DNA from: a virus
DNA length: 64,000 bases
Virus record (IMG/VR): IMGVR_UViG_3300022745_000018
Coordinates: 32,001 to 96,000 of that record
Direction: 5' to 3' (one strand)
A model generated the notes under the pieces. It saw nothing but the letters and a program-made list of their open reading frames with translations. It was not told the origin of the DNA and searched no databases. Positions within the stretch are counted from its first letter, which is position 1. Each line of letters starts with the position of its first letter. Shown piece after piece: positions 1,693-34,055 of the stretch. The position numbers and the translations under genes were made by a program.

Positions 1693-2427
1693 TTATTTAC
1701 CAGCCAAAGGATTCTTCTTAGAGAAATCCATGATATCCAAGAACTCTTGTTTCAGTTCGTCATCGTCACCAAAACCAAGAACGTCGTCGTATGGGATAGC
1801 AGATGTATATGCTGGATCTGTAACGAATTCTGGTGGAGGAGTACCAACATCAAGCTTGGTATTCAAACGATCCATATTCTTTCCAAACACACTATCCACA
1901 GGAGCATACCCAGTGTTGAACGTTTCGTTGTTCAACTGTGTCAATTCACAACGCAGTTCCCATACATACTTCTTATTTAATTGGTAGAAACTAGGTTCTT
2001 CGTCTTCAACGAATTTGATTTCAAACAGAGATTGCGAATTTGGGATGTAAATAAGATCACCCTCATTTGGTCTCCATTTAACCGTAGCATTCCGTGAAGA
2101 TGGTACGATCGGTACAACGACATCAGTAAATCGTTTGCGAGCGATGATCATCGTACAGGTATCTCGAACTTCAAGACCGAACTTAGCGATCATTTCACCT
2201 TCACCACCATACCCAGTGTAGTCACCAATCCAACATTCAACAATCGCATGAGAATCGAACGATGAAAGATTGTCCTCTCCCAGGACTTGATCTAGTTTAC
2301 CCAGAGTCCTCGGTAAATAGACGCAATCAACACCAGCGATCTGAATTGACTCAATCGCCATCTGTTCTACGATGTTCTGCTCAGACGGTACACCAATCTG
2401 AGCTTGAAAGTACGGGTTTAGTGCCAT
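1693..2427 (-). CDS. gp14: Neck protein (gp14-like)
   Basis: NPYF...EQ...ESIQIAG..YLPR, KFGLEVRD, RPNEGDLIY, LFEIKFVE motifs. Confidence 0.9.
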   Translation of the reverse strand: MALNPYFQAQIGVPSEQNIVEQMAIESIQIAGVDCVYLPRTLGKLDQVLGEDNLSSFDSHAIVECWIGDYTGYGGEGEMIAKFGLEVRDTCTMIIARKRFTDVVVPIVPSSRNATVKWRPNEGDLIYIPNSQSLFEIKFVEDEEPSFYQLNKKYVWELRCELTQLNNETFNTGYAPVDSVFGKNMDRLNTKLDVGTPPPEFVTDPAYTSAIPYDDVLGFGDDDELKQEFLDIMDFSKKNPLAGK

Positions 2428-3023
2428 TATTGCTTCTTAGGAGGGCGTGAACCGAACCACCATGTAGAACATGTAGTGAAGACGTATGTAATGGTACTAA
2501 TGATCTGCAGTTGAATCTGCATTGCTTGATCAGCTGTCATGTAGACACCATACTTTGAACTCAGATCCTTTACCCAAAGGAACATCATTGTAACCAAGAT
2601 GCATAGATAGATCGTCATTCCCGGGCGAAGGATGCCGCGAACAAAATCAACAATACCCATCATTAGAACAACGGCTGCACCAGCGAAACCTGGTCGCTTC
2701 TGCGATTCGGGTGCTAAGTATTTTGCAGTATCATTCTCGAAACTGGCGGAGAACATCTTTGCATCGGCATCTGCTTCAGCCACACCAATCGCTGCATCTT
2801 TATTACTTGACGCGATCGCTTCGTCTGCCTCTGCTCGTCTTTTCGCCGATTCAGATTCGATAGTCGCCAATTGGATGGAATTTGCATGATTCAACTTCAA
2901 TGTTTCGATGTCTTGATTTCGATGCTGATAATCGAAATACCGCTGAATCAACACACCGATCAAGCCAGTGGCTCCACCGGAAAAAATACCACCAACTATA
3001 GTACCAACAATTTCACCAACCAT
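2427..3023 (-). CDS. Putative holin-like 3-TM membrane protein
   Basis: Hydrophobic segments, VRGILRP and terminal WWFGSR motifs; adjacent to endolysin. Confidence 0.6.
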   Translation of the reverse strand: MVGEIVGTIVGGIFSGGATGLIGVLIQRYFDYQHRNQDIETLKLNHANSIQLATIESESAKRRAEADEAIASSNKDAAIGVAEADADAKMFSASFENDTAKYLAPESQKRPGFAGAAVVLMMGIVDFVRGILRPGMTIYLCILVTMMFLWVKDLSSKYGVYMTADQAMQIQLQIISTITYVFTTCSTWWFGSRPPKKQ

Positions 3024-3027
3024 TTTA

Positions 3028-3597
3028 TCACCCCAACAAAATCAATGCTCTAGTGTACAGCGATTGACGATCAGCCAAACCATTGTACCCACCGTTAATT
3101 CTTCTAGTGAGTTCACCGAAGTTATCAATGAACTTATTCAAATTCTTTCTACGCCAATACAAACCAGCAGAGACAGCCGCCCAAAACGGTTTCTCCAGTT
3201 CCTCAGGATGTTCTTCGAAATCAGGAACTTGAACTTTCATTACCTGAACGGCATAAGCACCAAGATCTCTGTAATTGCTTCTACCAGTGATCTGAATGAA
3301 TCCTCTACCATAGTACCGTTTACCATCACCGCTCGTGGTATTACCAAGTCTCTTCGACAAACTCGTCACTGGTTCATATCTGATTTGAGCAGAAGTTGGA
3401 CCCCAAATCTCTTTCATGAAAAGCAATCTACCAGATTCATGACCAATTTGCGCTAGAAAAGCAGCACACTGCTCAACAGTTTCGATCTGCGCAACGGTCA
3501 TTGCAATTCTCAATGGATTGACGAACACAGAACTAACCCTTCGGCCATACAATGACTGAAGGATTTCTGGTGTAATCCGATTGACGATATCTGACAT
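3028..3597 (-). CDS. Endolysin, glycoside hydrolase family 19
   Basis: AAFLAQIGHESG, YYGRGFIQITGRSNY, TRRINGGYNGLADR. Confidence 0.9.
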   Translation of the reverse strand: MSDIVNRITPEILQSLYGRRVSSVFVNPLRIAMTVAQIETVEQCAAFLAQIGHESGRLLFMKEIWGPTSAQIRYEPVTSLSKRLGNTTSGDGKRYYGRGFIQITGRSNYRDLGAYAVQVMKVQVPDFEEHPEELEKPFWAAVSAGLYWRRKNLNKFIDNFGELTRRINGGYNGLADRQSLYTRALILLG

Positions 3598-4046
3598 TAG
3601 TACTTACTTACAGATTCTGAAATTTGTTTCGAGGACGTAAATCCTTTTGTGTACATCTCGGCTGCTTTTTCTAGGAACTTTGCACCAGAGAAACTGGCCA
3701 TGATGACTGTAGCCAATTCCCACCAAACACTGAACTCATTGTGTCTGGAAATAGCAAACATCAGTACACCAGCCAAGAAACTTCCTAGCATATGGCTTGT
3801 CGCAAACAACCCAATTCTACTGATTCCGGTAGCTTTGCGCTTCATTTCTGAATCCAGACGGATAACAAGAGCAGTCGCACCAGATAGAATAGCAACACCG
3901 GCCATCACCAAGACTTGCGTCATGCTGATATTAGCGAAAGGATCTGGTGGAGTAGTCGCTACTGCGGCACTAACGGCCATAGGCCATAGGAAAAACAGTA
4001 AGATTTTAGCAATGGCGATTTTTCTAATGAAGTTGTTCTTCTGCAT
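3597..4046 (-). CDS. Multi-pass membrane protein, putative holin
   Basis: 3-4 hydrophobic helices; immediately upstream of endolysin. Confidence 0.55.
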   Translation of the reverse strand: MQKNNFIRKIAIAKILLFFLWPMAVSAAVATTPPDPFANISMTQVLVMAGVAILSGATALVIRLDSEMKRKATGISRIGLFATSHMLGSFLAGVLMFAISRHNEFSVWWELATVIMASFSGAKFLEKAAEMYTKGFTSSKQISESVSKY

Positions 4047-4485
4047 GTTTGTCTTCAAAGCAATTCGTCATCTTTACAAAGATGTCATACCCAGCAATGA
4101 TGGTGGCAATTACCCCATCGAGAAAATATCGAGCTATTGACAACGAGTTAAGGTCTTTGATCGTCAAAACAATCGCCGAGGTAACCAAACATATGAATAG
4201 CGCTAAAACCATGTAGATGACATGTCTATTATGCGATATGCTATCTACTACATATTTATTTAGAGATCTGAAGTCCGATGTAAGGGTATCGTATAACCCA
4301 ATCGCGATAACGATAAAGAACGATGATAGAATCGTTGTTGTACTAGACGATATCGCCTCATTAAAGAAATGGTGACCAAATGTGCTGTCGTAGAACAAAC
4401 TAACAACGGTAAATAACATGCTCATCAGAAGGTATAATCTGACACATGTGTATGCATGCCAATGATTCTGTTTACCCATATTCAT
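4024..4485 (-). CDS. 4-TM membrane protein of lysis cassette
   Basis: Four hydrophobic segments; start uncertain. Confidence 0.5.
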   Translation of the reverse strand: MNMGKQNHWHAYTCVRLYLLMSMLFTVVSLFYDSTFGHHFFNEAISSSTTTILSSFFIVIAIGLYDTLTSDFRSLNKYVVDSISHNRHVIYMVLALFICLVTSAIVLTIKDLNSLSIARYFLDGVIATIIAGYDIFVKMTNCFEDKHAEEQLH

Positions 4486-4489
4486 TTCA

Positions 4490-5440
4490 TTACCCCAAGA
4501 AGCCGATAGGTGGAAGTTCATAAGTGTCTCTAATTTCATTTTCTGCTGACTGAATCTCAGCCTCCGCTTGTGCCATCAAAGTACTAGCATCAATCGTCAC
4601 TCCACCCAACAACTGAATGTTTTGGTACTTAGATGTATTGGATGCCCATTGTTTCTTTATCACAGCCGTCACTAATTTCTTCAATAGACGGTCATTGTAA
4701 ATCTTCACATATGTATCTGGATCAAGAATGCGATATGTTTCAAACACGATCGTCGTCCCAATCGTGAAACCCGACATATCAGTATCCAAATAGATACGAT
4801 TCATTTTCTGGTTGAAATTGATCTGTGGAAGAGGTCTAATTGTTTTATCGACCAATTCCATGTATTCACGGACTTGTTCATAGTAGATCAACGATGACGA
4901 ACCCAATGTCGATAATTGGCTTGTTAGATTGAACATCGGATCGAACAAGAAGTTCTGTGACGAGTAGTTTGGAGTCCACGGAACTGCTCTAATGACACCA
5001 GTTACTAATGGCGACACCGAAACATACCCGTTTTCCGTATCACCCTGTACTTTCAATAGAAACGTTGTGGTGAATCCTGTCTGATTTGTCAGTGTTTCGT
5101 TAAGAACTAACGATTGACCAGAAGCACCAATTGGAGAAAATACTCCATTGGTAATGGCGATAGTCGGTGTTTTCATGTCATCGACTATGAAGTAATTACC
5201 GTTAGCCGCCGTCACTTTATCACCCTTCTGCAATCCAGAAGTACTCATGGTGATCTCCGTACCAGTGATTACGTGTTTCAACCAAACGCGCTCAGTTGCA
5301 TCGTAATGGAAGTCTTGGAAAAACTGTAGAGCATCATCAACTCTATCTTGAACTTGAGTCATGTCAACTTCAATGTTGATGACTGGTGCACCTAACTTCC
5401 GTAGTGCATATTCAATCAACTTCTGTCGTGTATCAATCAT
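4490..5440 (-). CDS. gp13: Neck protein (gp13-like)
   Basis: YALRKLGAPVINIEV, DDALQFFQDFHYD, KKQWASN..KY..IQLLGGVT, C-terminal PPIGFLG. Confidence 0.92.
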   Translation of the reverse strand: MIDTRQKLIEYALRKLGAPVINIEVDMTQVQDRVDDALQFFQDFHYDATERVWLKHVITGTEITMSTSGLQKGDKVTAANGNYFIVDDMKTPTIAITNGVFSPIGASGQSLVLNETLTNQTGFTTTFLLKVQGDTENGYVSVSPLVTGVIRAVPWTPNYSSQNFLFDPMFNLTSQLSTLGSSSLIYYEQVREYMELVDKTIRPLPQINFNQKMNRIYLDTDMSGFTIGTTIVFETYRILDPDTYVKIYNDRLLKKLVTAVIKKQWASNTSKYQNIQLLGGVTIDASTLMAQAEAEIQSAENEIRDTYELPPIGFLG

Positions 5441-5979
5441 CTATTTACCTGTATGCCTGTCTGTAGAACAAAATACGAATCGACGATATCGGTTAGTGGT
5501 GCCGGGATCTTTTCCAGATCTTGGTGGATGTTGAACCAAGAGAAGATGTCTTCACCAGTTTTTTCAATGAAAGCTTTTGCCATATCACCCTTCTTGGCAT
5601 TACCTTTGCCGGTGGAGGCTTTCTTGATTTCTGTTGGAGCCAACGTGACGATTGGGATATTTAACTCGTAAAGAGACTGTTTCATGACCGAAGTTGCTTC
5701 TGCGATATTGAGCAGCATCCCAGAACCACCAAATGCATATGCTTCAATGTACGCTTTCTCCACGGTACCCAATTTCAGAACGGCATCAAGTAAGGTATTA
5801 CATAGCTTCGAATATCGTTCTTCTGGAGTTTTCCATTCCGGTAATTCCAATAGAGTCACCTTTTTCGACCAACAATCTTGCTTCTTCTTTTGCTTAAATG
5901 CAAAATGTAAAATCTCGTTAACATCCGTTTTCACCGTAATTGCTGGTGAAGAGATGGAATAATCAATACCGATGATCAT
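5437..5979 (-). CDS. RuvC-like Holliday junction resolvase
   Basis: IIGIDYS, IEAYAF, PTEIKK..TGKGNAKK, DIVDS catalytic pattern. Confidence 0.8.
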   Translation of the reverse strand: MIIGIDYSISSPAITVKTDVNEILHFAFKQKKKQDCWSKKVTLLELPEWKTPEERYSKLCNTLLDAVLKLGTVEKAYIEAYAFGGSGMLLNIAEATSVMKQSLYELNIPIVTLAPTEIKKASTGKGNAKKGDMAKAFIEKTGEDIFSWFNIHQDLEKIPAPLTDIVDSYFVLQTGIQVNR

Positions 5980-6185
5980 TTGTATGATATCTCAATGGTA
6001 TGAATCGCGGAAATCGGTGTAGTGAAAGTTAATGTGTTACCAACGAATGTATATGAATTCTTGAATTGGTATACCCCATCAATGAAGACATCGTCCGAAC
6101 CAGTTGCCCTTGAAACTGTCGTGTAAACTGTCCCACCATTTGCAGCGATTCGTTCAGCCGAACTATGATTGCCTAAATATTTCAT
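5976..6185 (-). CDS. Small beta-rich virion-module protein
   Basis: VFIDGVYQ..YT...TLTF pattern also seen in tailspike 40495-43131; ATAAATA-like element upstream. Confidence 0.5.
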   Translation of the reverse strand: MKYLGNHSSAERIAANGGTVYTTVSRATGSDDVFIDGVYQFKNSYTFVGNTLTFTTPISAIHTIEISYK

Positions 6186-6255
6186 GATTTGTTACTAACC
6201 GGTATGTGTTTGCTGTTGTATTTATCATAGAACGGTTTAGTAAGGAGATGCTAAA

Positions 6256-6291
6256 ATGGTCCGGAAGCACGAAAATGCACTTCCAGACCAT
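6256..6291 (-). terminator. Stem-loop, probable terminator
   Basis: ATGGTCCGGAAG...CTTCCAGACCAT inverted repeat downstream of 6318-6707. Confidence 0.45.
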
Positions 6292-6317
6292 CTAGATTAG
6301 AATCTTATATGGTTCTA

Positions 6318-6707
6318 TTAGCTTGCGGTGATAATGACACCATCTCCCTCAGATTCATGGATATCTGCGGCATACATCAACATCCCGCTCAAAATCTCCG
6401 ACAAAGCCAAGTTTGCACTATTGCATAAAGTCGAACCTGGTTGATTTGCTTTGATGATGTCAATGAAGCCGATGCAGTCTAAAAACAAGTCTTTACTGAA
6501 AACCAAATCAAACACAATCACATAATCGCAATCAACATTGGGGTTTTCGATAACGAACTCTCTACCAGCAGCAAGAATTCCCTTCAGAGTCTCTGTTGTT
6601 AGATCATCGCATACTTCTCGGAATGTACCGACTTCGGACAAACCGGCATCAGTTTTCTTAAAGAACGTTCCATTGACATACTGTTGGCCGTTGCTATTCA
6701 AAATCAT
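6318..6707 (-). CDS. Hypothetical protein
   Basis: 129-aa ORF tightly packed behind helicase. Confidence 0.55.
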   Translation of the reverse strand: MILNSNGQQYVNGTFFKKTDAGLSEVGTFREVCDDLTTETLKGILAAGREFVIENPNVDCDYVIVFDLVFSKDLFLDCIGFIDIIKANQPGSTLCNSANLALSEILSGMLMYAADIHESEGDGVIITAS

Positions 6708-24214: not shown

Positions 24215-25879
24215 ATGAACAGAACTAACCAAATCAACGAAGCCTTCAAGAAACTTCGTTTCGAACCAAGAAACAACCAAGTCGATATCGTCAACAGAAT
24301 CATCCATGAATTTGTAGATCAGAATAAACGAAACGTGATTCTATGTGCAGATACTGGAATCGGTAAGTCAATTATTGCAGCAGTTACTGCAGAAGTTCTA
24401 TCAACAGAGATTCCTTCTGATGCCAAGAAGGGTATTTATGTCAGTTCGACGAACTCGTTGGTTGATCAGTATGCGAATACGTTCAAGGATGAGCCGATAA
24501 GTGATTGGCATCGTATCAAAGGTGCTTCCAATTATCCATGTGTCTACTTCAGAGAAAAAGGAAATCTGCAGTCAACTGGTGAAGACTGCGTCATTAAAGA
24601 CATTACAGAACAAGAACGTCAGAAGTTCTGCAGTAACTGTACTTATAAGTCAGCGAAAGCAGCGATCTATACGACACAGAACCTCATCACCAATTATTCA
24701 TACTTCATGGTGGGAAACGTCACAACGCATCATTTGCGCAACACAGCTCGTAGATTACACGTCTTCGACGAAGCTCATTTGCTAAACGATCAGTTCTGCG
24801 AACAGTTCTCCATTCACATTTCAGTCGAAACTCTGAACCGTTACATCGCCGAACTGAAAAATCAGAACGGTAAAATGAATTCTTATGCAGATACTCTAAC
24901 AGAAATGAGAGATCGTATTGCTGCGAAGCAGATCAAAGAAACTAACTATGTGAAGTTTATTTCGGAACTTCGAGATCAGTTCATCGGAATACATTCGAAA
25001 ATGATGTGGTTATCTTCCATGATTCCGGATTTGATGGTACGAAAGAAGATGCAGAAAGCAGCATCCAAGTACGATAAGATGGGGTGTAGGATGAAAGCGT
25101 TCTTCAATCCAGGATATGAACATGTGTTTGAAGATAAGAATCCTAACGAAATCACCATCAAACCAATCTTCGTATCTGATTCCATCTCAGATCTTTTGGG
25201 AGAAAAGAATCTCTTCATGACCGCGACGATGTCGATGGCCTATGCCAAGGATACGATGTCTCTACCAGCGAAGGACACGGCTTACATCGATGCAGGTACT
25301 GTATTTTCTCCACAGAATAGACCATTGTTCTTTTTGGGTAAGCGGAATCTGAATTACACGACGATGCAGAATGAAGATACTTTCACGCGATTGAGCGAAC
25401 TGACGAATGCGATCATCTCTCATCATAAAAATGAGAAAGGCATCATGCTGACTCCGTCGTTCTCAGCGACCGAGAAGCTGTGTAGGAATCTGAAAGGGAC
25501 GAAGGTGTTCGAACACAAGTCAGGCACGAAAGTATCCGAGATCATTGATCAGTTCAAATCATATAAGGGTTCAGCGATTCTCATTAGCCCTAGCATCTTT
25601 GAAGGCCTTGATTTCAAAGATGACCATTCGAGGTATCAGATTATCATGAAGACGCCATACCCAAGTCTTGGTGATAAACGGATGAAATACATCTGTGATG
25701 TCTACGGTCATGTCTATAGAGAAATCGGTTTGTATAAGATCATCCAAGGTGTAGGAAGATCAATTCGTTCAGAAACAGACACAGCAACTACATACTTTTT
25801 AGACAAATCGTCCCAGACACTGTTCGAATCAGATCAGAATCTGTGGGCCGATAGATTCGATGTCAAGGTGACCGCATGA
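24215..25879 (+). CDS. DinG/XPD-family SF2 helicase
   Basis: Q motif, ADTGIGKS, Cys cluster, DEAH, TAT, EGLDFKDD, QGVGRSIR. Confidence 0.9.
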   Translation: MNRTNQINEAFKKLRFEPRNNQVDIVNRIIHEFVDQNKRNVILCADTGIGKSIIAAVTAEVLSTEIPSDAKKGIYVSSTNSLVDQYANTFKDEPISDWHRIKGASNYPCVYFREKGNLQSTGEDCVIKDITEQERQKFCSNCTYKSAKAAIYTTQNLITNYSYFMVGNVTTHHLRNTARRLHVFDEAHLLNDQFCEQFSIHISVETLNRYIAELKNQNGKMNSYADTLTEMRDRIAAKQIKETNYVKFISELRDQFIGIHSKMMWLSSMIPDLMVRKKMQKAASKYDKMGCRMKAFFNPGYEHVFEDKNPNEITIKPIFVSDSISDLLGEKNLFMTATMSMAYAKDTMSLPAKDTAYIDAGTVFSPQNRPLFFLGKRNLNYTTMQNEDTFTRLSELTNAIISHHKNEKGIMLTPSFSATEKLCRNLKGTKVFEHKSGTKVSEIIDQFKSYKGSAILISPSIFEGLDFKDDHSRYQIIMKTPYPSLGDKRMKYICDVYGHVYREIGLYKIIQGVGRSIRSETDTATTYFLDKSSQTLFESDQNLWADRFDVKVTA

Positions 25880-26562
25880 ACTTTCTAGATGGGCCATTCA
25901 CTAAAGGTGATGTAGAGATTCAAGAAGTGAATCTTGATAGGGATGATTCTGGTCCCTATCGCATTTACATTGACGAAGAAGGAAACAAATATGAGTCAGT
26001 GACATCGTTCATTGGTCGCTCAGATCCTTCTAAAGAAGCCAGTCTCCAAGCTTGGAAGAATGCAGTTGGGTTGGAAGAGGCTAATGCGATATCAGAAGCA
26101 GCAGCAACAAAGGGTACTGCAGTCCACCTTGCATGCGAACAGTACATCGCTGGGTTGCGATGGCAGGACATCTCGATGTTCTGCAAAGCAGACTTTCTAT
26201 CAATCAAGAAACTCTTGGATGCAAAACTGTCTAAAGTAATTGGATCTGAGTTGCGGATGTACTCGAAACGTCTTAAGCTGGCTGGTACGACGGACTTGCT
26301 GGCTTCCTGGGACAATGAGATCTCAATCATTGACTTCAAAACATCTGGTAGAATCAAGTACAAAGATGAGATTGATGGGTACTTTCTTCAGATGGCTGCG
26401 TATGCTGCAATGGCATACGAGATGTATGGGATTCGAGTCAAGCATTTAGTCGTTATCATGGCGGTAGATGGTGACCCCAATGCATATGAATACGCCGAGA
26501 CAGTCGGTTATTGGCTGAACAAATTGATAGAGCTTAGAAGGACATATCCAGCTCTCCAGTAA
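25876..26562 (+). CDS. PD-(D/E)xK exonuclease
   Basis: YESVT, GTAVH, E, AGTTD, IDFKTS, LQMAAYA. Confidence 0.85.
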   Translation: MNFLDGPFTKGDVEIQEVNLDRDDSGPYRIYIDEEGNKYESVTSFIGRSDPSKEASLQAWKNAVGLEEANAISEAAATKGTAVHLACEQYIAGLRWQDISMFCKADFLSIKKLLDAKLSKVIGSELRMYSKRLKLAGTTDLLASWDNEISIIDFKTSGRIKYKDEIDGYFLQMAAYAAMAYEMYGIRVKHLVVIMAVDGDPNAYEYAETVGYWLNKLIELRRTYPALQ

Positions 26563-26592
26563 CTATCGCGATGCTGTCGGTTAAATATATGC

Positions 26593-26865
26593 ATGACAGC
26601 AGTAACAAGATTGGGTGATTTATGCTCTGGTCACGGAGTTTGTTCACCTAGACCATCAACGTCTGGTTCTCCAGACGTCTTTGCGAATTCAAAACCAGTA
26701 CACAGACAACATGATCTGTGGGGACAGCACTGTCTACATACATCTGAACTTTCTGGTGGTTCGTCTACTGTTTTCGTTAATAGCCGTCCACTTGGACGTG
26801 TGGGTGATACTATAGCATGCGGGTCAACCGTCGCGAACGGTTCGCCAAATGTGTTCTCAGGGTAG
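26593..26865 (+). CDS. PAAR spike-tip protein (gp5.4-like)
   Basis: AVTRLGDLCSGH, GSPDVF, H, GRVGD.IACGS, GSPNVF. Confidence 0.92.
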   Translation: MTAVTRLGDLCSGHGVCSPRPSTSGSPDVFANSKPVHRQHDLWGQHCLHTSELSGGSSTVFVNSRPLGRVGDTIACGSTVANGSPNVFSG

Positions 26866-26868
26866 TAG

Positions 26869-27543
26869 ATGAAAAGAAACGAACTGGCTGAAGGTATCCA
26901 ACATTACCTAGGCAATCCTTTATTAAAAGCCGCTAGACAGCCGCTCCAATTTACCATGGAGCAAGCTAAGGAATATGCTAAGTGCGCCCGTGATCCGGTC
27001 TACTTCATTGAGAACTATGTAAGGATCGTTTCGCTGGACGAAGGTCTTGTTCTATTCAAGATGTATCCGTATCAGAAACGAATGATTCGTGCGATGCACC
27101 ATGGTCGAAAGGTCGTGGGTAAGATCTTTAGACAGGCTGGTAAATCCGCGATCTGCGCTGCATACATTTCTTGGTATATCACGTTCAATGGACACAAGAC
27201 AGCGGCCATCTTAGCAAACAAAGCATCGATTGCTAGGGAGATCTTCAGTAGGATTCAAGTCATTCTCGAGAACCTTCCTTTTTGGTTGCAGCAAGGTGTC
27301 TTGGAATGGAACAAGACATCGTTGGAATTAGAGAACGGTTCCAAGTGCTTTTGTGCAGCAAGTTCGCCTTCTTCTGTTAGGGGTAAGTCGATCAATCTAC
27401 TTTTTTGCGTCGCTGGTGAGACAAAAGTTCATCTTCGAAATAAACTAACTGGCGAAATTGTTGAAGTACCTATATCTGACTTGAAGGGTTTGCTTAGAAG
27501 AGAGGAGGAAGATGATGAAGGATTTTCAATTTCCCTCAATTAA
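26869..27543 (+). CDS. gp17: Large terminase fragment 1 (ATPase N-part, 179 aa) fused to short N-intein 1
   Basis: YLGNPLLK, RQAGKS Walker A, EWNK, ELENGS, RGKSINLLF then CVAGETKV...TGEI (intein block A). Confidence 0.93.
   Translation: MKRNELAEGIQHYLGNPLLKAARQPLQFTMEQAKEYAKCARDPVYFIENYVRIVSLDEGLVLFKMYPYQKRMIRAMHHGRKVVGKIFRQAGKSAICAAYISWYITFNGHKTAAILANKASIAREIFSRIQVILENLPFWLQQGVLEWNKTSLELENGSKCFCAASSPSSVRGKSINLLFCVAGETKVHLRNKLTGEIVEVPISDLKGLLRREEEDDEGFSISLN
27406..27540 (+). other. Split intein 1, N-fragment (45 aa incl. acidic tail)
   Basis: Starts with Cys1 (CVAGET) immediately before the Walker B DE. Confidence 0.88.
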
Positions 27544-28735
27544 AGAAACTGACGATTATCTAAGATTCATAGAAGAATGTATAGAACCAAACGAACATTG
27601 TGAAAAACATCACATATATCCAAAATCGATATTTGGTGACAATTCCTTCATAAAGAAGCTGTCATATAAAGATCACTTCTTTGCTCATTATTTGTTGGTT
27701 AAGCTATATGAAGCCGCTGGGATGAAATCTGAATACTTGAAGATGTCAAAAGCATTCTTTTCTTTCATTCGCTGCAATGAATATCGGTTATCTGAAATAT
27801 CATCGTATTCGGATGATGACATCACTGTGTTAGGGTGTCTATTTGAGGAAGCGAAAATTGAAAACTCTAAATCTTCAAACGGCGAAAACAATCCTTTTTA
27901 TGGTAAATCCCATTCGCCGGAAACTATTGAGAAAATACTGAATACAAAGAAGACACGTAATTCAATGAAATTTTGGACAAATGAGAAGAAAAAACGTCTA
28001 AGCGAAGTCCTCAAATCTCTACAAAATAAAAAGGTCATTTGGGTCACGAATGTTGAGACTAGAGAGAATCGTAGAGTATCTGAAAACGATCTTAACAACA
28101 TTTCAGATGAATGGGTTCTTGGTAGATATACATCAGATGAAGAGCGTCTGCACAGATCATACTCAGCCAAGGAATCCTCACATAATCTAACTTACGAATG
28201 GGTTCGCCGTGGAGATGAGCATGAATGGAGTGGCACCAAACACATAAAGTCGCTAGAGACTGGTGAAAATAGACGTCTAAAGATCAGTGATGAAATACCC
28301 AGTGGGTTTGTGTTAGGGCTCAATTTTTCGCAGTCTCATTTGGATAATCTTAGAATGGCGGCAAGTAAACGTAGAGGTAGACCACAACCTCACGTAATTG
28401 AGATCAATAAAAATCCATCCAAGATAAAGAAGACAGCTGATAAAAATCGCGGCACTACTCGCACAGAAAGTCAGAAATTAAAAATGAGTCTTGGGAGAAG
28501 AAAGTTTATCGCGAACGGGGGCAAAGCTTCGACTGCTGGTACGAAAAGATTGTTCAACAAATTATCTAAGAAGTTCGTATATGTACCTGCGAATGAAGTC
28601 TCCAATTCAATGAAAGAGAATTTGAATCTAACTGATGAAGCAGTAAGATTGGCGACGAACATGAATGGTGATAGATTGTATGTCTGTCAAACGGAAACAT
28701 TACCCAATGGATTTGAATATGTTCTTAGAAAATAA
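27512..28735 (+). mobile_element. Free-standing HNH homing endonuclease with NUMOD3-type repeats
   Basis: EKHHIYPKS...DHFFAHYLL; NPFYGKSHSPETIEKI; lies between IntN1 and IntC1, overlapping both. Confidence 0.85.
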
Positions 28736-29039
28736 TGAATGGGAAGTTTTGACGGATGAAGGGTGGTCCGATTTTTCGGCTCTGAAGATAGGTCGGGGTG
28801 CATTCGTATCAATATCTTTCTCCAATCAAGAAAGCATAAGAGTCACCGCCGATCATTTGTTGATGACGGCTGATGGGTGGGTTGCTGCAAAAAACATCAA
28901 TGTTGGTGATAATGTAAAGTCCATAGATGGCTTCATCGATGTCATTTCAATAAATGATGGTGGCGAAGGTGAGACTTTCGATTTAGTCGGTGTAAAGAAG
29001 AATTCTAGGTATTTTACGAATGATGTTCTGTCACATAAT
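28719..29039 (+). other. Split intein 1, C-fragment
   Basis: VLTDEGWSDF, TADH, TFDL, ends SHN before Cys+1 at 29040. Confidence 0.9.
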
Positions 29040-29411
29040 TGCGACGAATTTGCCCACTTGGCTCCAAAATTAGCAGAAGAGTTTATTGCATCGGTTTTCC
29101 CGACGATCTCGTCGTCAATGGAATCGAAGCTGATTATCGTATCCACGCCAAAGGGTATGAATCAGTTTTACAAACTGTGGGTAGATGCTGAGAATGGGAA
29201 GAATGGCTTCATAACGGTTGAGGGTAAGTGGAGAGAACATCCCAAGAGAAACCAGAAATGGGCGGATGAGCAATTAGCAATTCTCGGGCCCGTCAAGTAC
29301 AAGCAAGAAGTGGAATGTCTTTGGGGAAAATCCAAAATAACATTAAGAGATGTTGTGACAGGGGAAATCTTGAATGTGTCTTTAGAAGAAGCATATGATC
29401 TAATTTGTTAA
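28719..29411 (+). CDS. gp17: Large terminase fragment 2: C-intein 1 (107 aa) + 92-aa middle extein + N-intein 2 (31 aa)
   Basis: TADH (block B), VLSHN|CDEFAH, VSTPKG.N.FY, QEVE|CLWGKS..TGEI. Confidence 0.92.
   Translation: MFLENNEWEVLTDEGWSDFSALKIGRGAFVSISFSNQESIRVTADHLLMTADGWVAAKNINVGDNVKSIDGFIDVISINDGGEGETFDLVGVKKNSRYFTNDVLSHNCDEFAHLAPKLAEEFIASVFPTISSSMESKLIIVSTPKGMNQFYKLWVDAENGKNGFITVEGKWREHPKRNQKWADEQLAILGPVKYKQEVECLWGKSKITLRDVVTGEILNVSLEEAYDLIC
29316..29408 (+). other. Split intein 2, N-fragment (31 aa)
   Basis: CLWGKSKITLRDVVTGEILNVSLEEAYDLIC. Confidence 0.88.
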
Positions 29412-29430
29412 ATACAAACAAAAAGATCAT

Positions 29431-30448
29431 ATGAGAGAACATACTTACATTGGAAATTTGCTTCGTAGTAGATATATTATAGTCGATGAATCGTATCTAA
29501 ATGAATATGTTGATTTGTGTTTATCAAAGGCTCTACCAACAAAGATTAGATTTGAAACGGAATGCCACCACATTCTACCTAAATGCAATAGGGCATTTCC
29601 TGAATTTAGAAAAGCAAAGTGGAATTTAGTTCACTTACGATTCGCTGATCACGTTCACGCTCACTATTTGTTGTATAAAGCAACACGTGCTGCAGAATTT
29701 GCCGCGGCGATGGTGTTTACTCTTGGCAATAGTTGCGCGTTTCCAAGAACTGATGCTGAATTGCTGGATATATTACCGATCATTGAGAAAATATGAATAC
29801 TCGCTATTCATGAATAGCGAGAGAAACCCTAACATTGGCTCAAAACGTTCGCTAGAGACCAAATTGAAAATGTCCATTGCACAAAAGGGTGTCAAGAGAG
29901 AATATGTAAAACGTATTTGGGTTCATAACTACATCGAAGATAAGATGGTGCAGGATGTTGAATTAAACGATTACATAAATGCTGGTTGGCAATTTGGCCG
30001 CACCGAAGCAACAAGAATGAAACTAGCAGACAGTAAATTAGGGACAAAGGACTCGGATGAGACTAGAATTAGAAAAAGTTTGGCGCAAAGCAAATATGCA
30101 AATTCCAGCGGTTCACACTTAAAGACATCTGAGTTTAGAGAATACCGCCGTAACATGTTCATTAAAAATAACCCATCATCATCTATGGAGGCGAGAGATA
30201 AAATTTCTGCTCGGATGAGAAAGCGCTGGGGTAATGATGATTATAGATCAAAAATGAGTGAAATGTTCTCTAACATAAACACGGGAAGTAAATTTTTCTA
30301 TAACATAGAAACAAAGGAATTTCGTAGATTTAAGCTAACAGACGAAATTCCACCAGGATTTCAAGATGCAACAGGTAAAACGCATTGGGTTAAAGATCAA
30401 AACGGAAAACGATTGAAAGTCATCGATGAAACGAAATTCACGGTTTGA
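29431..30448 (+). mobile_element. Second HNH/NUMOD3 homing endonuclease, in two frames (+1 shift near 29790)
   Basis: 29431-29796 has ECHHILPK...NLV.L..DH..AHYLL; 29687-30448 has SLETKLKMS / ETRIRKS repeats. Confidence 0.75.
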
Positions 30449-30737
30449 AATTCATGGCCCGCGTGGTTGGTGCAAGTTCGATGGGATTCGAAGAAAGAAG
30501 TCTTCGTCTTTATTAAAAATAGTTTTTGAAGATGGGGCACCATTAGTGTGCACTCGTGATCACCGATTCTTTATTGATGGCAAATTCATACAAGCCGCTA
30601 AAGTGCAAACCGGTAAGGAGATGAACGGGCGTGTTGTTCATGAAGTCGTGCCCATTGATGAATCGATGAGCGTCTACGACCCGGTTAACGTCGCTGATGG
30701 CAATGCGTATATTGCGGATTGTGTTGTTAACCACAAT
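30426..30737 (+). other. Split intein 2, C-fragment
   Basis: Ends HN before Cys+1 at 30738. Confidence 0.9.
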
Positions 30738-31562
30738 TGCAGTTTCGTCGGTTCGTCGAAGACACTGATTGATGGTGACAAGATTGCTCAGATCCCATTC
30801 ATTGAACCTTTACATGAAACGACCGACAACTTGAAGATGTATGAGGCGTCAATCCAAGGTCATTCGTATGTCTGTGCGGTTGACGTCTCTAGAGGTCAAC
30901 ACTTAGATAGTTCAGCGTTCATTATCTATGATGTGACGGTGATGCCATATAAGATCGTTGCTACGTTCAAGAATAATACGATATCCACACTGACTTACCC
31001 GTTCATGATCATCAATACATGTAAAGCATACAACGATGCCTACTGTCTGGTTGAGATCAATGATGCTGGTGGTGAAGTCGCCAATTCCATCTTCTACGAT
31101 AGTGAATATGCCAATGTCTATTGGACTCATAAGGACGACTTGGTAGAAGGTCTTGGATACCCTGGAGTTCGTTCCACGAAACGTGTAAAGGGCGTCGGTT
31201 GTTCAGTCTTGAAAGAATTGGTGGAACAGAACCAATTGATCGTGAATTCATATGACATCATCAATGAAATGAACAACTTCATTGCCAAGGGTGCATCGTA
31301 TGCAGCCGACGATACTCAGATCAATGATGACTTGATGACGTGTCTTTGGTTATTTGCGTGGCTGACAAAGCAACCGATGTTTGCTGACATCACCAATACG
31401 AACATCAGAGCAGTTCTGAATAGAAAGTATGAGGATTCTATTCTGGAAAGTCTGATTCCGTTTGGATACATTACTGATGGGACGGAAGAAAGTGCAGATC
31501 CAGTGACACACTTGGATCAGATGCGAACACCTGACCCAATGAAAGATTGGTTGTTAGGGTAA
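30426..31562 (+). CDS. gp17: Large terminase fragment 3: C-intein 2 (104 aa) + nuclease domain (274 aa)
   Basis: TRDH, VYDPVNV, VNHN|CSFVGSSKTLI, VDVSRG..DSS, VEIND.G, NDDLM. Confidence 0.93.
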   Translation: MKRNSRFEIHGPRGWCKFDGIRRKKSSSLLKIVFEDGAPLVCTRDHRFFIDGKFIQAAKVQTGKEMNGRVVHEVVPIDESMSVYDPVNVADGNAYIADCVVNHNCSFVGSSKTLIDGDKIAQIPFIEPLHETTDNLKMYEASIQGHSYVCAVDVSRGQHLDSSAFIIYDVTVMPYKIVATFKNNTISTLTYPFMIINTCKAYNDAYCLVEINDAGGEVANSIFYDSEYANVYWTHKDDLVEGLGYPGVRSTKRVKGVGCSVLKELVEQNQLIVNSYDIINEMNNFIAKGASYAADDTQINDDLMTCLWLFAWLTKQPMFADITNTNIRAVLNRKYEDSILESLIPFGYITDGTEESADPVTHLDQMRTPDPMKDWLLG

Positions 31563-31575
31563 CGAGTACCCTAAC
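31553..31575. terminator. Hairpin between convergent genes
   Basis: GTTAGGGTA-N5-TACCCTAAC. Confidence 0.55.
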
Positions 31576-31580
31576 TTGGT

Positions 31581-32000
31581 TTAGGCTGTAGTTTCTTCAG
31601 CCATCAATGCAGCCAGTTCGGCCTGCAACTCATCGATGGTTTTGGTACCCAGCGATTCATTGCGTTTGGTTTCGATCAATTCCATGATCTTCTGTGCAGA
31701 AGCATTGCGATGGGCACGACGTTCAGCAGTGACTTTCTCGGCTTTCTTGATCTCGATGATCTCTTTCAAGACATCAAGAGCGATAGCCGATTCACGGTCA
31801 ACTTTCGTCGGTTCACCAGTGACGAACGAAGGAACCTCAGCGTCTTTGCGCTTCTTGAAGATTTCCATTGCAATGGAATCCAAACTGACACGACCACCTG
31901 AAGCAGTCAACGGCAGATCAAACAGATCTTCAACGGTCAAGATGCCTTTGGTTGTCGCAAAGCGAAGTTTCAAACGGGCTGCTTGCAAAAATACATTCAT
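31581..32000 (-). CDS. Hypothetical phage protein
   Basis: AARLKLRF.T.KG.LTVEDLFDLPL; AGGAG SD; coupled to upstream large gene. Confidence 0.7.
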   Translation of the reverse strand: MNVFLQAARLKLRFATTKGILTVEDLFDLPLTASGGRVSLDSIAMEIFKKRKDAEVPSFVTGEPTKVDRESAIALDVLKEIIEIKKAEKVTAERRAHRNASAQKIMELIETKRNESLGTKTIDELQAELAALMAEETTA

Positions 32001-32010
32001 GATAAACTCC

Positions 32011-34055
32011 TTAGAAAGTTACATTAAGTTCACGTGTGATGGTTCCATTGACCCGGACCCGAAGGGTATTGCGTTGTGTAGACGAGAAGCCTACACCAGA
32101 TAATTGATCACCCTCTGGGTTGATCTTGTTATTAGCGCCAAGTAATTCGAATACTCGGCGGTGCTGATTCAAATCCTCTCGGACGTACTCGTTATAGAAT
32201 CCACGGACAGGTTCATCTGTCTTGCATCCATCAAGAATGTGTGTTTATTACCGATCCCACCGCCATCTTTCCAATGGTTAGGCGAATTCAGAACAAATTT
32301 CACAGGAACGAACTGATTTGTGTTGATTCCCCAGACCGTCTTGACTGAAGATGAACTCTTCAAGACTGGTTTTACCGTCAAGTTTCCAGATTGATCTTTG
32401 ATGATATTGGCGACATGGATATCACCATGTACACGTTGGTCATGGGTAAACGTTGTCACTTGGCCGCCAATTTCAATTTCAACGACGAAACCAATGTCTT
32501 GGTTGCTGCGGCGGTGGTACTGATTGACGACCAACTTATATTCACCTGGGCGCATTCTTGAACTGTTTTTGTAGACGATATTTTCGCATGGATCTTTTCT
32601 GATACCATCGATGCCATTCGCATCTACATCAAGCATGCCGCCATTCGCAGATAGTGCACGGCGATTACCGAAATAGACGTGACCGTAGTCGTAATTGCGT
32701 TTCGCATTTCCATTGACTTCTTCATACATGTGGAAGTCCAAGTCGTCTTCATTGAACCATGCAAGGCGACACATCAGATCTCCTTCAACTGCACCACCAG
32801 CGGCTTTGACACGTTCTTTGATCGAGTCCGTGACATCGCCTTTGTATGCCCAGCTGAATTTATTGTCCCACTTGAAGATATTCCCAGCGGTTGGATCGGA
32901 TGGTGCAACCAATGTCATCAGATTGGCCGCTTGTTTGTTCTCGATAAGAACTTCCAAGGATTTCGTTCCGGGTAGGACATTCTCAATGAATTTCTCAATC
33001 GAGATGGTTTCGATACCAGACACGGTTGCCTTTGCCTTGACTGCTTTGGTTGGAGCCAAGTCATCGAAAGCATTCTGAGAGATCTTCTTCGCGGCCCGTG
33101 ATGCACGCCAAATAACGTCATTGACAGACAAGTCACTCTCAATAGCGAGACGGCGATCAAAAGCAGTTGCGATTCCGAGATCGTTCACGACTTTCTTTGC
33201 AGCATCAATCTGCTTTTTGGTCACGATGGCGACTGGTCGTTTGTAGTTCGCAGGAGCCATTACTGCTTCGTATTTTCGCACAGCGACTTCCAAATCGACG
33301 TCGTTAGAAACGTCAATCAGGAATGTACCAACTGCAGTGTTACGAAGACGTGTAACTGCGGGAATTAGTTTCCCGACTTTCATCCATGCAAAGATCTTCA
33401 GATCTTCGGATTTGTTCGCTGCTTTCTGCAGATCGCGGAATGCTTTGACCGCACCAAGATATTCATCACCGCGGTACAGAGAACCTTGATTGGTCAATTC
33501 AATGAATGTATCCAGTGAGTCTGGTGTAAGTTCTGTCAGACCACGATAGAATACATCGAAGGTAGATTTGAATTCACCAGACAATGTACCGATGCTGCTA
33601 GATGGTGCAACCATGAAAGGTGGCAGATTCAGATGAAAGTGGTCCCAACGTTTAGGTTCACCAGAAACAGTTGCTTCAAATGATTTGTCGGTACCAACAG
33701 TCTTCTCGAAATGGAGAAACTTACCAACGATCGTGCCAGAACGGACAAGATCCGCCATTGCTTGTGCGACTTCTTTGTAGAACCCAATGTCGGATTCCGC
33801 TGCACCATCCCAAATCGTCTGAATTTTTCCATTGACGATAGAAACCATGCCACCGATCGTGCGAATAAAATGCTTGCAGCAAGAACAATCGTGCTGAGTG
33901 CGTTCACGATAGATTGGATTTGAACCTTCAGGGAATGACTTCAGATATGTGTTCCAAAGATCATCTCCACTAATGCTAGTTTCAAAAGCATTCTCGCTCT
34001 TGATCATTTCTGCAAATTGCTTAGCAACTGCATTTTTCAAATTCACAAAATTCAT
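32011..34055 (-). pseudogene. Large phage protein with frameshift near 32235
   Basis: 628-aa ORF (HDCSCC, W...DDLDFH, LDVDAN) continues in another frame DGCKTDEPVRGFYNEY...LSGVGFSST to TAA at 32011. Confidence 0.7.

Follow-up and report, generated by a model that had tools for sequence, protein, structure and literature searches.

Analysis of a 64,000-nt stretch of viral DNA (here called the window; positions 32,001 to 96,000 of the IMG/VR record IMGVR_UViG_3300022745_000018) revealed a gene for a T4-type large terminase (TerL) that is encoded in three pieces. The locus is located on the plus strand at window positions 26869 to 31562 and consists of six abutting or overlapping open reading frames (ORFs), designated ORF A, HEG1, ORF B, HEG2a, HEG2b, and ORF C, where HEG denotes a homing-endonuclease gene. 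ORFs A, B, and C encode three consecutive segments of TerL (exteins 1 to 3) together with the N-terminal (IntN) and C-terminal (IntC) halves of two split inteins. Very probably, this TerL gene has been invaded twice, its product is made as three polypeptides, and two trans-splicing reactions join these into one 545-aa enzyme. An initial annotation of this DNA had described TerL as three such ORFs, with defined extein, IntN, and IntC lengths, and had located the IntN cysteine codons as well as the T-x-D-H motif, the terminal His-Asn, and the Cys+1 codon that belong to each IntC. Every coordinate was reproduced, and all of these residues were read as claimed (Table 1).

The joined terminase and its two split inteins

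In-silico splicing of the three ORFs yielded a protein of 545 aa and 61.7 kDa, in which the joined exteins are complete for a T4-type large terminase, with Walker A, Walker B, C-motif, and nuclease domain. The Pfam profile Terminase_6N was found to be divided between two ORFs, with profile positions 6 to 101 in ORF A and 102 to 203 in ORF B, and the profile Terminase_6C matched ORF C (E = 2.6e-9). The T4 gp17 chain 3ezk_A was matched in consecutive segments, namely 86 to 252 by extein 1 (E = 4.5e-36), 261 to 320 by extein 2, and 355 to 564 by extein 3. Extein 3 additionally matched the nuclease domain of RB49 (3c6a; E = 3.3e-33). Comparison of the spliced protein with the uninterrupted TerL of Synechococcus phage BUCT-ZZ01 revealed 58% identity over 521 aa with zero gaps at either junction, and both +1 cysteines are native residues of the BUCT-ZZ01 protein. 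Identity to this protein was 66% for extein 1 and 64% for extein 2, and it ranged from 51 to 66% for all three exteins. Because the Pfam profile is continuous, the gp17 segments are consecutive, and the alignment to an intact TerL is gap-free, the three-ORF arrangement is beyond chance; at the level of sequence, the three ORFs are confirmed as parts of one TerL. In silico, splicing thereby restores the Walker B junction and a 545-aa gp17-like protein, as the initial annotation had predicted, and the exteins fit T4-like gp17 as expected.

In the 3ezk_A mapping, the junction between exteins 1 and 2 (site 1) is positioned approximately 1 residue before the Walker B aspartate, and the junction between exteins 2 and 3 (site 2) is positioned at approximately gp17 residue 353/354. 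Site 1 thus lies at Walker B and site 2 near the boundary between the ATPase and nuclease domains.

Both inteins contain the full class-1 catalytic set, comprising the first intein residue Cys1, the T-x-x-H motif of block B (TADH in intein 1 and TRDH in intein 2), the terminal His-Asn, and Cys+1. Both are split after block A, into 45 + 107 aa and 31 + 104 aa, with the two halves on separate ORFs. IntC2 matched the C-terminal half (CatC; 6dsl_B) of the consensus atypically split intein Cat-TerL from end to end (E = 1.9e-9). The best solved match of IntC1 was VidaL (6vgv_A; E = 6.3e-5), and its match to CatC was weaker. Since IntC1 reached just E = 0.0076 against CatC, intein 1 is by sequence a more distant relative of the AceL/GOS/Cat-TerL type than intein 2. 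VidaL (6VGV/6VGW), whose host gene is not known to be TerL, has the same split topology as intein 1 at low similarity. Inteins 1 and 2 are 24% identical, and the cores of IntN1 and IntN2 share 11 of 30 residues.

A contiguous counterpart of intein 1 was detected in a metagenomic relative (L004/L005), which carries a 135-aa cis mini-intein at exactly site 1. This cis intein is 52% identical to the first 27 aa of IntN1 and 44% identical to IntC1. Since one contiguous domain matches both at the same site, IntN1 and IntC1 appear to be halves of one domain. Modeling of the IntN1-IntC1 complex gave an ipSAE of 0.69, compared with 0.21 for the best control; solved look-alike complexes exist, so likeness may contribute to this value. 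Of 80 solved complexes, 58 attained that mark, as did 2 of 110 mismatched pairs. The contacts agreed to at least 91% between runs, and the partner pLDDT was 68. In this model, which describes docking and covers pair 1 alone, Cys1 is packed against block B and the C-terminal junction. Motifs, homology, the cis counterpart, the IntN1-IntC1 model, and the lack of an intron signal together support the proposal, already made in the initial annotation, that two atypically split class-1 inteins rejoin a three-piece TerL.

The source record is a 171,909-bp virus contig from a freshwater metagenome, rated 99% complete by CheckV. In a Logan contig from the run that is probably the source, window positions 26000 to 32500 were reproduced with 0 differences. 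In two runs of other studies, identical short contigs were found that bridge the HEG1/IntC1, IntC1/extein 2, extein 2/IntN2, and HEG2/IntC2 boundaries, so that the identical locus sequence is present in three samples from three studies. An assembly artifact was ruled out by the independent Logan contig and by the boundary-spanning contigs in the two other samples. No RNA run is listed among the sequencing runs holding the sequence. When the locus was compared with 50,697 phage records by megablast, nothing matched, which indicates that no near relative has been deposited there.

Occurrence of split and unsplit states in relatives

Word-indexed and exhaustive HMMER searches yielded 197 proteins, which were classified by extein anchors; this set is enriched for middle-fragment relatives, and its counts do not represent frequencies. 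Middle fragments of 188 to 268 aa that start with an IntC and end with an IntN accounted for 27 proteins. Of the others, a single site was affected in 35 proteins split at site 1, in 21 split at site 2, in 24 with a cis intein at site 1, and in 8 with a cis intein at site 2. Both sites were occupied in 21 proteins with a cis intein at site 1 and a split at site 2, in 12 with the reverse arrangement, and in 5 with cis inteins at both. Among the relatives, every combination of the empty, cis, and split states at the two sites was encountered. Approximately 70 of the 80 relatives fetched from IMG/VR were uninterrupted.

The initial annotation had suggested looking for phage genomes in which both TerL sites are occupied. 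Such cases were recovered as the 27 further middle fragments and as complete three-piece loci on further contigs, one of which is T4-like, is 65.5 kb long, and carries neck, sheath, tube, and portal genes. The IntC-extein-IntN middle fragment is thus found in at least 27 other diverged lineages, and the 28 lineages are 30 to 54% identical. The +1 cysteine is present in 28 of 28, and the aligned middle fragments have the block B histidine in 26 of 27 and the block B Thr/Ser in 27 of 27. The terminal residue of the IntC is Asn in 25 of 28 and Gln in 3, and the first residue of IntN2 is Cys in all except one lineage (27 of 28). This lineage (P0103) has Ser at that position, the same as reported for GOS-TerL. 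Judged from these sequences, the double split is widespread in uncultured T4-like phages and is no rarity of this phage.

Comparison of the insertion positions revealed that site 1 comprises three adjacent insertion points near Walker B, at which the +1 cysteine is positioned 3 residues before the Asp-Glu pair, directly before it, or apparently after it. The use of three neighboring points argues for several independent invasions at site 1. The endonuclease gene in the gap also differs by lineage and is of the HNH, GIY-YIG, or HNH_3 type. At one locus (L084, positions 5667 to 5936), IntN2 and IntC2 are separated by a spacer of approximately 170 nt with a short NUMOD-like ORF remnant of approximately 60 codons, which looks like a decayed endonuclease gene. 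At another (L093, positions 2043 to 3834), the middle and C-terminal fragments have an overlap of 20 nt, and no endonuclease gene intervenes; going by this arrangement, the split intein has lost, or never had, its endonuclease.

Further arrangements were observed in individual relatives. The N-terminal fragment of L093 (positions 1 to 2043) is one ORF of 680 aa that ends at the contig end, and that of L094 (positions 2113 to 5001) has 962 aa. In both of these three-piece loci, the N-terminal terminase part continues in frame into a GIY-YIG endonuclease domain, and L093 has a LAGLIDADG domain further upstream. A metagenomic TerL of 842 aa (P0053) carries cis inteins at both sites used in the window. 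This protein begins with a third IntC-like domain before extein 1 residue ~97, just past the P-loop, which implies that a third insertion site exists, that it is a split one, and that terminases in four pieces occur, as far as this one sequence can be read. L063 (positions 6068 to 6471) has an intein at site 2 that closely resembles the Cat/AceL consensus; at the customary split point its N and C parts share a frame, and a frame change occurs further in.

Cultured phages carry single-split forms, at site 2 in Serratia phage 92A1 and Yersinia phage MHG19 and at site 1 in Campylobacter Fletchervirus phages. In Serratia phage 92A1 (OR088902, Straboviridae; positions 3224 to 6186), the split intein at site 2 has a GIY-YIG gene in its gap, and both the endonuclease and the C-terminal TerL fragment are annotated as "hypothetical protein." For Yersinia phage MHG19, the two-piece search match spans two terminase coding sequences and one hypothetical protein. 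In Campylobacter phage vB_CjeM_Los1 (KX879627; positions 4004 to 5332), the annotated "DNA packaging protein" opens with an IntC positioned at Walker B. Since the gene upstream of it encodes a neck protein, the N-terminal TerL fragment of this phage must be located elsewhere in its genome.

Endonuclease genes and layout of the locus

Both gaps between the TerL ORFs are filled by endonuclease genes, which the initial annotation did not mention. The HEG1 product matched NUMOD3 (E = 3.8e-8), weakly HNH_4, and the "homing endonuclease" family phrog_655 (E = 7.8e-16). HEG1 is preceded by a strong Shine-Dalgarno sequence, GAGGAGGA, which is located just upstream, inside the IntN1 tail, and the gene overlaps both neighboring ORFs in other frames. 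HEG2a matched the "HNH endonuclease" family phrog_12434 (E = 1.4e-17) and annotated homing endonucleases of T4-like phages, and it shares an N-terminal motif with HEG1. HEG2b showed a weak match to NUMOD3 and has a C-terminal motif in common with HEG1 (E = 2e-6); a tblastn search of HEG2b against phages gave no match. By these matches, HEG2 belongs to the HEG1 family but is distant from HEG1.

The HEG2b frame is open from position 29630, with GTG at 29687 as the first common start codon and an ATG at 29810. A short contig from another study is identical over the HEG2a/HEG2b overlap, and because this sample is independent, the frame change between the two ORFs is not a read error. HEG2 may be a broken single gene or a two-part gene. 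Together with the 9-bp palindrome just past the HEG2a stop codon, the arrangement could represent a gene in decay, a nuclease in two parts, or a hairpin for translational control.

ORF B would have 248 aa if read from its first ATG at position 28665, and further in-frame ATG codons are located at 28680, 28707, and 28719. The ATG at 28719 corresponds to the start of the public gene call P0001 and is consistent with the N termini of homologous fragments. With these starts, both IntC-bearing ORFs begin 14 to 20 nt before the stop codon of the preceding endonuclease ORF. Because each of them starts within the 3' end of an endonuclease ORF and lacks a strong ribosome-binding site, translational coupling to the upstream ORFs is plausible from the sequence. 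Scans of the locus for sigma-70 promoters and terminators revealed no excess over the shuffled expectation, and the T4 late-promoter motif TATAAATA was not present in the locus.

The TerL locus is positioned outside the usual T4 gene order, and no small terminase gene adjoins it. Upstream of it (window positions 24215 to 26865), a DEAD_2/Helicase_C_2 helicase, a PD-(D/E)XK nuclease, and a 90-aa PAAR protein are encoded. Downstream (31581 to 34055), the opposite strand carries ORFs of 139 aa and 628 aa without a Pfam match.

Table 1. Features of the three-piece TerL locus (window positions)
Feature	Position	Strand	Length	Remarks
ORF A	26869-27543	+	224 aa	179-aa extein 1 + 45-aa IntN1; stop at 27541; 25.4 kDa
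TerL extein 1	26869-27405	+	179 aa	N-terminal ATPase part with Walker A; ends inside Walker B
IntN1	27406-27543	+	45 aa + stop	Block A only; Cys1 = TGC 27406; acidic tail overlaps HEG1 start
HEG1	27512-28735	+	407 aa	Free-standing HNH/NUMOD3 homing-endonuclease gene; different frame
ORF B	ATG 28719 to stop at 29409	+	230 aa	IntC1 (107 aa) + extein 2 (92 aa) + IntN2 (31 aa); 25.8 kDa
IntC1	28719-29039	+	107 aa	Blocks B (TADH), F, and G; terminal His-Asn
TerL extein 2	29040-29315	+	92 aa	Cys+1 (TGC 29040), then Walker B Asp-Glu; contains C-motif
IntN2	29316-29411	+	31 aa + stop	Cys1 = TGT 29316; aligns with IntN ends of 27 other middle fragments
HEG2a	29431-29796	+	121 aa	HNH catalytic-domain ORF
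Palindrome	29800-29821	.		Perfect 9-bp stem just past HEG2a stop; ATG 29810 in loop
HEG2b	29810-30448	+	253 aa (listed length)	NUMOD3-type DNA-binding part; frame next to that of HEG2a
ORF C	30426-31562	+	378 aa	104-aa IntC2 + 274-aa extein 3; 42.5 kDa
IntC2	30426-30737	+	104 aa	Blocks B (TRDH), F, and G; terminal His-Asn; starts 20 nt before HEG2b stop
TerL extein 3	30738-31562	+	274 aa + stop	Cys+1 (TGC 30738); end of ATPase domain + RNaseH-like nuclease domain

Alternative explanations, proposed mechanism, and known systems

Instead of being spliced, the three fragments might assemble non-covalently, with the intein halves serving as docking domains and no peptide bonds being formed. Phage enzymes that work in fragments without splicing are known, such as Aeh1 NrdA, the product of a fractured gene that lacks inteins, and gp43 of phage 25 (cited in PMC2677866; also PMC3045599), and the IntN1-IntC1 complex model shows docking, not chemistry. 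Such an assembly is nevertheless very unlikely, as the two inteins, and the 28 lineages as a whole, have retained their nucleophiles and assisting residues. Site 1 moreover cuts Walker B, so that retained intein domains of approximately 150 aa would occupy the ATPase active site, and Kelley et al. 2016 (PMC5050341) argued that TerL pentamers cannot assemble as long as an intein is present and that splicing is needed before pentamer assembly. Even less likely is that the terminase is decaying and nonfunctional and the phage genome defective or a dead end. This idea draws on a genome known from metagenomes only, on the division of HEG2, and on the weak start signals of the IntC ORFs; it is opposed by three open exteins that are 51 to 66% identical to the TerL of a cultured phage, by an identical sequence in the samples of three studies, and by an architecture that is kept with conserved catalytic residues in many diverged lineages. 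The 99%-complete record was also searched twice over the whole genome, and no second TerL turned up; the locus was the only TerL-like one with inteins.

Least likely of all is that the endonuclease inserts are removed from the RNA or passed over by the ribosome (through an intron, bypassing, or frameshifting), after which the inteins would splice in cis. Phage terL genes with self-splicing introns beside homing-endonuclease genes do exist, for example in ICP1. In the window, however, an Rfam scan of positions 26000 to 32500 revealed no intron match down to E = 1 (the sole match was a PyrG leader at a chance-level E of 0.69), and HEG1 is preceded by a strong Shine-Dalgarno sequence of its own and overlaps both neighbors out of frame. 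Among the relatives, L093 and L084 leave no room for an intron, because their intein halves overlap without a spacer or are just ~170 nt apart with an endonuclease remnant between them.

According to the preferred reading, that of a doubly invaded TerL rejoined by trans-splicing, the TerL gene of an approximately 172-kb T4-like freshwater phage would have been invaded at site 1, inside Walker B, and at site 2, near the ATPase/nuclease boundary. At each site, a class-1 mini-intein would have been broken after its first ~30 to 45 residues by a free-standing HNH/NUMOD3 homing-endonuclease gene. The three polypeptides (Table 1) would then meet by docking of IntN1 on IntC1 and of IntN2 on IntC2, each pair completing a HINT fold. 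Two trans-splicing reactions, each proceeding through a Cys1 thioester, trans-thioesterification to Cys+1, and Asn cyclization, would produce one TerL and four released intein fragments. The endonucleases presumably spread the elements by homing.

We infer the binding, the splicing chemistry, and the absence of cross-reaction between the two pairs. Several points weigh against this reading. The evidence on this phage is DNA sequence, and its genome is known from a metagenome alone; the ribosome-binding sites of ORFs B and C are weak; and HEG2 is divided into two ORFs, so at least one of the elements may be decaying. Cross-reaction between the IntN and IntC halves is also conceivable, because 11 of 30 residues of the IntN cores are identical and related TerL IntN fragments have been reported to be interchangeable in vitro (review PMC11766414). 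Since the middle fragment has the geometry IntC-cargo-IntN, which in other settings serves for cyclization, mispairing would cyclize the middle extein or delete extein 2. The model therefore requires the two pairs to be orthogonal, for which the net charges give no explanation. Charge complementarity was considered as the basis of pairing specificity and rejected, as it fits pair 2 (+7 for the IntC2 N terminus and -2 for IntN2), fails for pair 1, in which both halves are acidic (-4 for IntN1 and -9 for IntC1), and is weak across the 28 middle fragments.

The short-N/long-C split inteins that the initial annotation listed as known singly from phage TerL agree with the literature (review PMC11766414; PMC2677866). 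AceL-TerL, GOS-TerL, and Cat-TerL have been shown to trans-splice, with IntN parts of 25 to 37 aa and IntC parts of 104 to 115 aa (PMC11766414). They resemble the window inteins in the TerL host gene, the short IntN, the long IntC, the class-1 mechanism, and Cys+1, but they were studied as single pairs out of context, whereas the window has a second pair 92 residues upstream, known from sequence. Fractured genes were defined by Dassa et al. 2009 (PMC2677866) from 27 loci with GIY-YIG or Vsr-like endonucleases. One of these loci is a freshwater-lake gp17-like terminase with an unusual split, the same as that of the window inteins, whose 122-aa C part contains all motifs except N1. As in the window, the split-intein halves of fractured genes flank a free-standing endonuclease gene on the same strand within a conserved enzyme gene. 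Each of those genes is broken once into two, in contrast to the TerL of the window, which is broken twice into three, and the window endonucleases are of the HNH/NUMOD3 type, which the same study predicted could fracture genes as well.

In mycobacteriophages, cis-splicing TerL inteins cluster at the ATPase motifs, including Walker B (TerL1-e), and their splicing has been shown (Kelley et al. 2016, PMC5050341). These inteins mostly contain nested endonucleases, unlike the split inteins of the window with their free-standing endonucleases, and the text of that study makes no mention of two inteins per phage or of a split intein. The IntC-cargo-IntN middle fragment joined to two flanks has a counterpart in the system of Beyer et al. 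2019 (bioRxiv 10.1101/546465), which likewise needs non-cross-reacting pairs. That system is man-made, with orthogonal pairs to be engineered, whereas the arrangement in the window is natural and recurrent. A natural gene broken twice by split inteins was not found in a literature search that covered mostly open-access papers and returned engineered or single-split cases only. Each element is thus already known in kind, and the occurrence of two such splits in one gene is provisionally new, in line with the initial annotation, which knew of no description of two split inteins in one TerL.

These findings are of interest to specialists in inteins and in phage packaging. In the papers searched, three-fragment ligation is an engineering goal that needs orthogonal intein pairs; the loci described here would supply pairs naturally selected to work side by side, with IntN parts short enough to be synthesized (31 to 45 aa). 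TerL is a standard phage marker, and fragments annotated as "hypothetical protein," as occur even in Serratia phage 92A1, affect annotation, phylogeny, and completeness estimates. The states seen at the two fixed sites (empty, cis, and split with or without an endonuclease) form a dense series of the intein/endonuclease life cycle that Dassa et al. proposed. It is possible, though rather unlikely, that the three-piece TerL is stable and selected and not a transient parasitic stage, that its inteins have co-evolved to be orthogonal, and that terminase assembly and the onset of packaging are gated by endonuclease translation, the last idea being based on the start of both IntC ORFs inside endonuclease ORFs. 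If assembly were gated in this way, the selfish genes would be hard to lose. If the joined product forms, this phage would provide a natural case in which two protein trans-splicing reactions assemble an essential viral enzyme, TerL, out of three polypeptides.

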